Source: Escherichia coli (lineage in GTDB: Bacteria > Pseudomonadota > Gammaproteobacteria > Enterobacterales > Enterobacteriaceae). Taken from it: a DNA stretch of 64,000 bases. This document shows positions 63,243 to 63,610 of the stretch, one piece after another. The stretch lies in NCBI RefSeq assembly GCF_003334315.1, contig NZ_QOWR01000014.1; one strand, written 5' to 3'. How positions within the stretch are numbered: the stretch's first letter is position 1; the number at the start of each line of letters is the position of its first letter. The notes beneath the pieces are model-generated. The model made no database searches. It worked only from the letters and a program-made list of their open reading frames with translations, and was not told the origin of the DNA. The translations under genes were made by a program, and so were the position numbers.

Positions 63243-63533
63243 TTCTGCCAAACTGCTTTCAGTTGTTGCGTGTGGCTACGCTTTCCATTCGGTAATTCCC
63301 TTCCTGCTCCACAGCGAATTTTTGAACTTTTTCTTCACCCGTTGACCGTCTCTTATATTTCATTTTAACGGGTCTGTTATGGTCCTTTCTGATTGTTATT
63401 CATGGGCTAATTAGCAGTCTGGTTGGCGATGCCCATCTCGGTGATCCGTGTCCTGCACGACGCCTTGCGTCACTAGCCTCTTCTCTAGCTCATCATGCAG
63501 GTCTTTCTAATTGTGAAATCATCCCACGCTACT

Positions 63534-63571
63534 GCTAAGGTTGAAGGGGCGTTCCAGCCCCTTCAACCTTA
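63534..63571. repeat. Perfect 16-bp inverted repeat (hairpin, 6-nt loop) about 40 bp from the IS1 end
   Basis: ctaaggttgaaggggc-gttcca-gccccttcaaccttag read directly; no clear U-tract on either strand. Confidence 0.6.
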
Positions 63572-63610
63572 GCTTATTCTGGCTCATTCAATAATTGCGT
63601 TGTCAGTAAT

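Follow-up and report, generated by a model that had tools for sequence, protein, structure and literature searches.

In IS10 and IS50, structures near the outer end keep outside transcription from expressing the transposase. ISEc13 is an IS50/Tn5-like element of the IS4 family that is found intact on IncI, IncX and IncF plasmids of Escherichia and Salmonella. Its boundaries were set from two independent insertions (L006 and L007), giving an element of 1564 bp with the terminal repeats CTGTCTCTTATACACAAGT (left) and CTGTCTCTTGATCAGATCT (right), and its protein is 457 aa long. We take the two ends (L006 2459–4022) to be nearly the Tn5 outside end (one mismatch) and exactly the Tn5 inside end. 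In the literature, ISEc13 appeared only in lists of mobile elements.

Between rluA and djlA, Escherichia coli O157:H7 carries espY1, a type III secretion effector gene. At the same locus of K-12 MG1655, RefSeq gives a pseudogene ('transposase DNA-binding-containing protein'), then yabQ and yabP, so that the insertion sequence (IS) relic described below is already known as a pseudogene. Literature searches for yabP and yabQ returned almost exclusively unrelated Bacillus sporulation genes.

The window analyzed here is a stretch of 64,000 nt of E. coli DNA (contig NZ_QOWR01000014.1), and the interval of concern, 63243–63610, lies between rluA and an IS1 element. We interpreted the locus as an acquired islet 3' of rluA, made up of the end of a dead ISEc13-like element, a junction palindrome and an espY1 pseudogene, and cut by a private IS1 (probability about 0.88). 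The islet is common to the strain studied, K-12 and O157:H7. It begins with the left end of the dead element, comprising a terminal repeat, a hairpin with a T-run, a transposase leader and about 58 ruined codons. The relic is cut off at a 17-bp palindrome that would have been made by inverted duplication of its own last bases, and the palindrome adjoins the stop of the convergent effector gene espY1 (yabP plus yabQ in K-12). Only in the strain studied has IS1 landed inside yabQ, 37 nt from its end.

The interval past rluA and the IS1 junction

The features of the locus, in window coordinates, are as follows.

59589–62495, + strand: rapA
62507–63166, + strand: rluA coding sequence, stop codon TAA at 63164–63166 (K-12 annotation transferred by offset)
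63167–63200: linker of 34 nt from the rluA stop to the IS relic, present only in islet-bearing genomes and with no counterpart in CFT073
63201 to about 63556, + strand: truncated left end of an ISEc13-like IS of the IS4/Tn5 family (blastn against ISEc13)
63201–63219, + strand: left terminal inverted repeat, CTGCCTCTTGTACATAAAT, identical to the ISEc13 left repeat at 15 of 19 bases
63216–63247, + strand: hairpin with a 9-bp stem and a 4-nt loop (63216–63237), followed by the T-run TTTTTTGTTT (terminator scan and folding)
63379–63557, + strand: transposase pseudogene, N-terminal DNA-binding part (PGAP, 'transposase DNA-binding-containing protein')
63534–63573: perfect 17-bp palindrome, arms 63534–63550 and 63557–63573, loop of 6 nt
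63574–63610, – strand: 3' remnant of yabQ, 37 nt, i.e. 11 codons and the stop in the K-12 yabQ frame
63611–64000, – strand: right end of IS1, with its inverted repeat starting at 63611 and the element running past the window end
63626–63919, – strand: 3' part of the IS1 transposase gene, colinear with an annotated IS1B-family transposase

The window was compared with the MG1655 locus (L001; window position = L001 + 60099). The two were colinear for 63.6 kb up to the IS1 junction, at 99.7% identity, which indicated that the source is a K-12-like lineage of E. coli in which the IS1 insertion is private. Direct comparison gave zero mismatches from 61278 to 63610. The segment 63100–63610 was 100% identical to K-12 MG1655 and to many further E. 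coli genomes, with identity ending at 63610. At 63611 the two sequences part: the right repeat of IS1, GGTAATGACTCCAACTTATTG, starts in the window, and TTGTTCAGCAGTAC follows in K-12; the junction corresponds to L001 3511/3512.

Two other differences from K-12 were seen farther upstream. An 85-bp tandem unit of the REP/BIME type at 56109–56289, which by its K-12 position is intergenic between araA and araD, was present in 2.1 copies, one copy fewer than in K-12; this was the only indel in the 63.6 kb. In rapA, 12 substitutions were clustered within about 530 bp (60749–61277), followed by none in the next 2.3 kb. By its substitution pattern, this cluster looks like a short recombination tract.

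The first-pass annotation had reported that no ORF of at least 60 aa lies in the interval. This was confirmed on both strands, for ORFs within or overlapping 63243–63610. The longest ORF fully inside it was 34 aa, and the longest overlapping it was 45 aa (63208–63345). This scarcity is real but no more than expected by chance: when the 368 bp were shuffled by mononucleotides 5000 times, 59% of the shuffled sequences had no ORF reaching 60 aa, and the interval's own longest run without a stop, 70 codons, equaled the shuffle median. The interval contains no gene.

The K-12 yabQ frame would span 63574–63732 on the – strand, of which 37 nt, identical to the K-12 yabQ 3' end, were left before IS1. 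In the intact espY1 frame the stop codon falls at 63584–63586, which leaves 27 nt. YabP was 87.5% identical to residues 1–192 of the O157:H7 effector EspY1, and YabQ aligned to residues 202–244. Judging from these alignments, yabP and yabQ are the two halves of a frameshifted espY1 and not independent small genes.

The same annotation had viewed the interval as a spacer and supposed that the small yab genes had been displaced or interrupted by IS1, or simply lay beyond it. Alignment to the reference rluA–djlA interval was 100% identical and colinear, with the homology breaking exactly at 63610/63611. IS1 thus interrupts yabQ; the remainder of yabQ and all of yabP would lie beyond IS1, outside the window. 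The colinearity agreed with a clean insertion into non-coding DNA, but IS1 had not entered unannotated DNA. The view of a spacer with small yab genes held only in part: most of the interval is a truncated ISEc13-like IS, and yabP and yabQ belong together as halves of espY1. In content the interval is ordinary: the fossil end of an IS4-family element comes first, then the junction palindrome, and last the 3' end of an effector pseudogene that a strain-specific IS1 has cut.

The IS1 start that had been placed at 63611 was borne out both by the end of K-12 identity at 63610 and by an independent IS1 copy. This copy, of the IS1B family, lies in yabP of strain 2018-01-1CC (L002 4217–4990), about 600 bp away and in the same orientation. 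It was 91.8% identical to the IS1 of the window and aligned with it exactly from its first base, 63611, which fixed the terminus. The IS1 in the window carries the right repeat and the 3' part of the transposase gene, which reads towards rluA; the left end and insA are beyond the window. It is a divergent isoform, and identical copies were found in many E. coli genomes. The independent insertion in yabP also indicated that the espY1 pseudogene region was hit by IS1 more than once. Two matches were first taken for the same junction as that in the window. They were rejected, as what they showed was another IS1 insertion, in yabP, pieced together from two parts.

IS1 generates a target duplication of 9 bp. 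The nine nucleotides directly before IS1 (63602–63610) are GTCAGTAAT, and we assumed a simple insertion with target duplication, of which the window, ending 390 bp into IS1, holds one side. The junction might instead have been formed by an IS1-mediated deletion or inversion, or by an assembly join, in which case yabQ, yabP and djlA would not be on the other side. The far junction and any target-site duplication do lie outside the window, and a search of 5426 complete E. coli genomes, the species representatives of GTDB and metagenome contigs gave no hit to the junction. On the other hand, the colinearity with K-12 held right up to the junction, IS1 began at its exact terminal base, and nearby independent IS1 insertions, such as that in yabP of 2018-01-1CC, kept their neighboring genes. 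We considered a rearrangement unlikely and retained the simple insertion into yabQ. Its effect would most likely be neutral, since the disrupted fragment was already a pseudogene.

The ISEc13-like relic and its hairpin

By blastn, positions 1–354 of ISEc13 matched 63201–63559 of the window at 87.8% identity (E = 1e-117), so that about 356 bp are left of the 1564 bp of an intact element. In a plasmid search, ISEc13-like matches covering at least 80% of the query were found in 145 records, and the best intact copies were 88.5% identical over 313 bp, from 63243 to about 63555. The divergence of 12% suggested that the parent was a relative of ISEc13 and not ISEc13 itself.

The 19-bp Tn5-type left repeat was present at 63201–63219, and a further 335 bp of homology were contiguous with it. 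No right inverted repeat, whether IE- or OE-like, was found in the K-12 or O157 islet with up to 5 mismatches allowed. Neither was there further ISEc13 homology, a second end around espY1 or a composite-transposon structure in the islet. The relic was therefore regarded as a truncated element.

The transposase ATG at 63379 is kept. The reading frame beyond it is broken by a TAG stop at codon 12 (63412–63414), an insertion of 4 nt at 63419–63422 and an insertion of 1 nt at 63509, and homology was lost after about codon 58 of 457. With some 58 codons, a stop and two frameshifts, this is a relic and not a functional member of the IS4/Tn5 family. The inactivating lesions were common to O157:H7 and the avian strain GPEC403, which argued that the relic is old. 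The translated relic from the window or K-12 gave no NCBIfam match; only the O157-like translation matched NF049926, weakly (24 bits against a cut-off of 27). It was the DNA-level match to ISEc13 that was decisive for the identity of the relic.

An rluA terminator had been supposed in this region. A terminator-like hairpin with a T-run was indeed present at 63216–63247, and it sits within the relic. It was the first and only convincing terminator-like site past rluA in the terminator scan, and it has the form of an intrinsic terminator on the + strand, a G+C-rich stem-loop followed by a T-run. ISEc13 carries the same hairpin at the same position. In ISEc13 (L006), the left-end hairpin and T-rich tract directly inside the left repeat had a folding z-score of –4.9. 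By this correspondence, the structure called the rluA terminator is a part of the relic, a modestly new point.

At the end of the living element, the hairpin would probably have blocked outside transcription from entering the transposase gene. In its present place it would most likely serve as the intrinsic terminator of rluA. This predicted role was drawn from the known behavior of IS10/IS50-type elements and from the sequence. Published 3'-end tables for MG1655, in which only prominent ends are listed (PMC7815308), contained no end at about 59606–59637 or about 59280–59319, the positions of this hairpin and of the palindrome described below. This was uninformative, since rluA is weakly expressed.

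A similar arrangement was observed on plasmid pCUPF09A (L005 2440–2590), where an ISEc13-like left-end relic lies between pgtA and an IS91-family element. It consists of ..CTTATACACAAGT, the hairpin and a leader of about 87 nt at 86% identity, and the hairpin is just past the 3' end of a gene. Because of the neighboring IS91 transposase, this match was considered as an IS91 end. It was rejected as such, as ..CTTATACACAAGT and the hairpin mark it as an ISEc13-like left-end relic.

The 17-bp palindrome and sequence constraint

The homology to ISEc13 ends in the palindrome at 63534–63573. Its left arm was colinear with the ISEc13 coding sequence (..AQVEGA..). Its right arm was absent from ISEc13 and is the reverse complement of the left arm. 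We infer that the palindrome would have arisen by inverted duplication, through fold-back or template switching, at the break that truncated the IS. It would thus be a truncation scar, which again is a modestly new point.

The palindrome folded at –37 kcal/mol on the + strand and –34.5 kcal/mol on the – strand (z-scores –8.1 and –6.7). A weak T-run followed it on the + strand (TTATTCTG), and none on the – strand. It would probably end or stabilize transcripts that reach it from either direction. With the 40-nt palindrome included, the spacer had a median of one location per genome, and the palindrome is therefore not a dispersed repeat of the REP/BIME type.

The palindrome abuts the yabQ stop codon; its distance from the stop of the intact espY1 frame is 10 nt. 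This position, together with its great stability on the – strand, would suit a terminator of espY1 itself, acquired with the effector gene, with the match to the IS relic being coincidental or due to later conversion. However, the left arm continues the ISEc13 frame unbroken, and 17 complementary bases out of 17 would not be possible by chance. In the absence of a T-run on the espY1 strand, the palindrome is also not a canonical terminator for that gene. An espY1 terminator of this kind was accordingly judged improbable, and the truncation scar remained the preferred reading.

Ten divergent copies of the relic were compared for constraint. The hairpin (22 nt), the terminal repeat (19 nt) and the palindrome (40 nt) were invariant. 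None of the 62 columns of hairpin plus palindrome was variable, versus 20 of the 286 columns (7%) elsewhere in the relic. The palindrome differed in a single copy only (L013), by an additional C beside the loop, at the top end of the left arm. By our own estimate (0.93 to the power of the number of invariant positions), the chance probability is roughly 0.01–0.02 with only 10 sequences, so that the invariance is suggestive and hints at constraint. The invariance of the palindrome could reflect arm-to-arm correction instead of function.

The dead IS end may have been domesticated. The hairpin would then be the rluA terminator in the roughly 38% of E. coli genomes with the espY1 islet, replacing the REP-type junction of other genomes, the palindrome would be a two-way insulator between rluA and the effector gene, and both would be under selection. 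We put this forward as tentative, with the odds somewhat against it.

Some transcription of the region on the – strand is suggested for K-12 by a published 3' end antisense to rluA, at MG1655 60116 (+ strand in that coordinate system), which corresponds to about 62737 on the – strand of the window and apparently comes from the bicyclomycin (Rho-inhibition) table (PMC7815308). Such transcripts would come from the yabQ and relic side, and in the strain studied IS1 now lies upstream of their path. An Rfam search of 62900–64000 at a permissive threshold gave just two chance-level hits, asX2 and GcvB (E = 0.24 or worse), and a promoter scan found no promoter-like site within the spacer. Retention of the spacer for an unannotated small protein or small RNA is very improbable: identity of 95.7–100% is kept in 2086 genomes and the Rho-dependent antisense end implies that the – strand is transcribed to some extent, but no Rfam match came near the gathering scores, ORFs do not exceed 45 aa and lie in decayed IS sequence, the variation of 7% of the columns outside the hairpins, with indels, fits neutral drift, and PGAP gives only a pseudogene.

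Origin of the islet and comparison with known systems

Of 5426 complete E. coli genomes, 2086 contained the spacer, at 95.7–100% identity, and its neighbor in these was yabQ, espY1 or a 'pentapeptide repeat' gene. CFT073 has an empty site, in which rluA and djlA are convergent and 117 bp apart. Homology between CFT073 and K-12 ended at the rluA stop codon and resumed at the djlA stop codon. The 117-bp junction looked REP-type, as judged by eye. The 34 nt that link the rluA stop to the relic were identical in K-12, O157 and GPEC403.

An outgroup Escherichia species (MOD1-EC7003, about 96% identical) has the CFT073-type junction. This suggested that the segment of about 1.5 kb, which includes the linker, the IS relic and espY1 with its upstream region, is most likely a derived islet. 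At 46–47%, compared with 53–55% for the neighboring genes and the window, its G+C content fits a foreign origin. A 1.6-kb contig in a metagenome-assembled genome of Collinsella sp. (L011, JAIJJM010000692.1) carried the E. coli rluA–espY1 islet at 97.6% identity to the window and was probably mis-binned.

A seemingly empty interval in a well-studied chromosome thus turned out to hold a fossil IS and a pseudogene fragment cut by IS1. This in itself matters little and has no bearing on any open question. What is usually regarded as the rluA terminator is a hairpin derived from an IS, a small case in which sequence from a mobile element has come to serve as a gene boundary. Relic and espY1 form a compact islet, for which a clean empty site exists, and the islet could be a lineage marker; the strain-specific IS1 site could be a typing marker.

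Compared with K-12 MG1655, the window has the same pseudogene past rluA, and has IS1 in place of the yabQ and yabP that follow it there. Compared with O157:H7, it has the same locus, the same espY1 3' end and a spacer 98.9% identical. The K-12-type gene is frameshifted into yabP and yabQ, and in the strain studied it is also cut by IS1.

Compared with ISEc13, the relic is colinear with the first 354 bp or so. Terminal repeat, hairpin, leader and the N-terminal codons including the LGDPRR motif region are common to both. The relic lacks about 1.2 kb, in which ISEc13 has its catalytic domain and right inverted repeat. The T-run is longer in the relic (TTTTTTGTTT) than in ISEc13 (TTTGTTATTT).

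As in IS10 and IS50, the relic has a stable hairpin directly inside the terminal repeat and upstream of the transposase start. The fold in IS10 and IS50 sequesters the ribosome binding site, whereas the structure in the relic has the form of an intrinsic terminator and is predicted to act as one.
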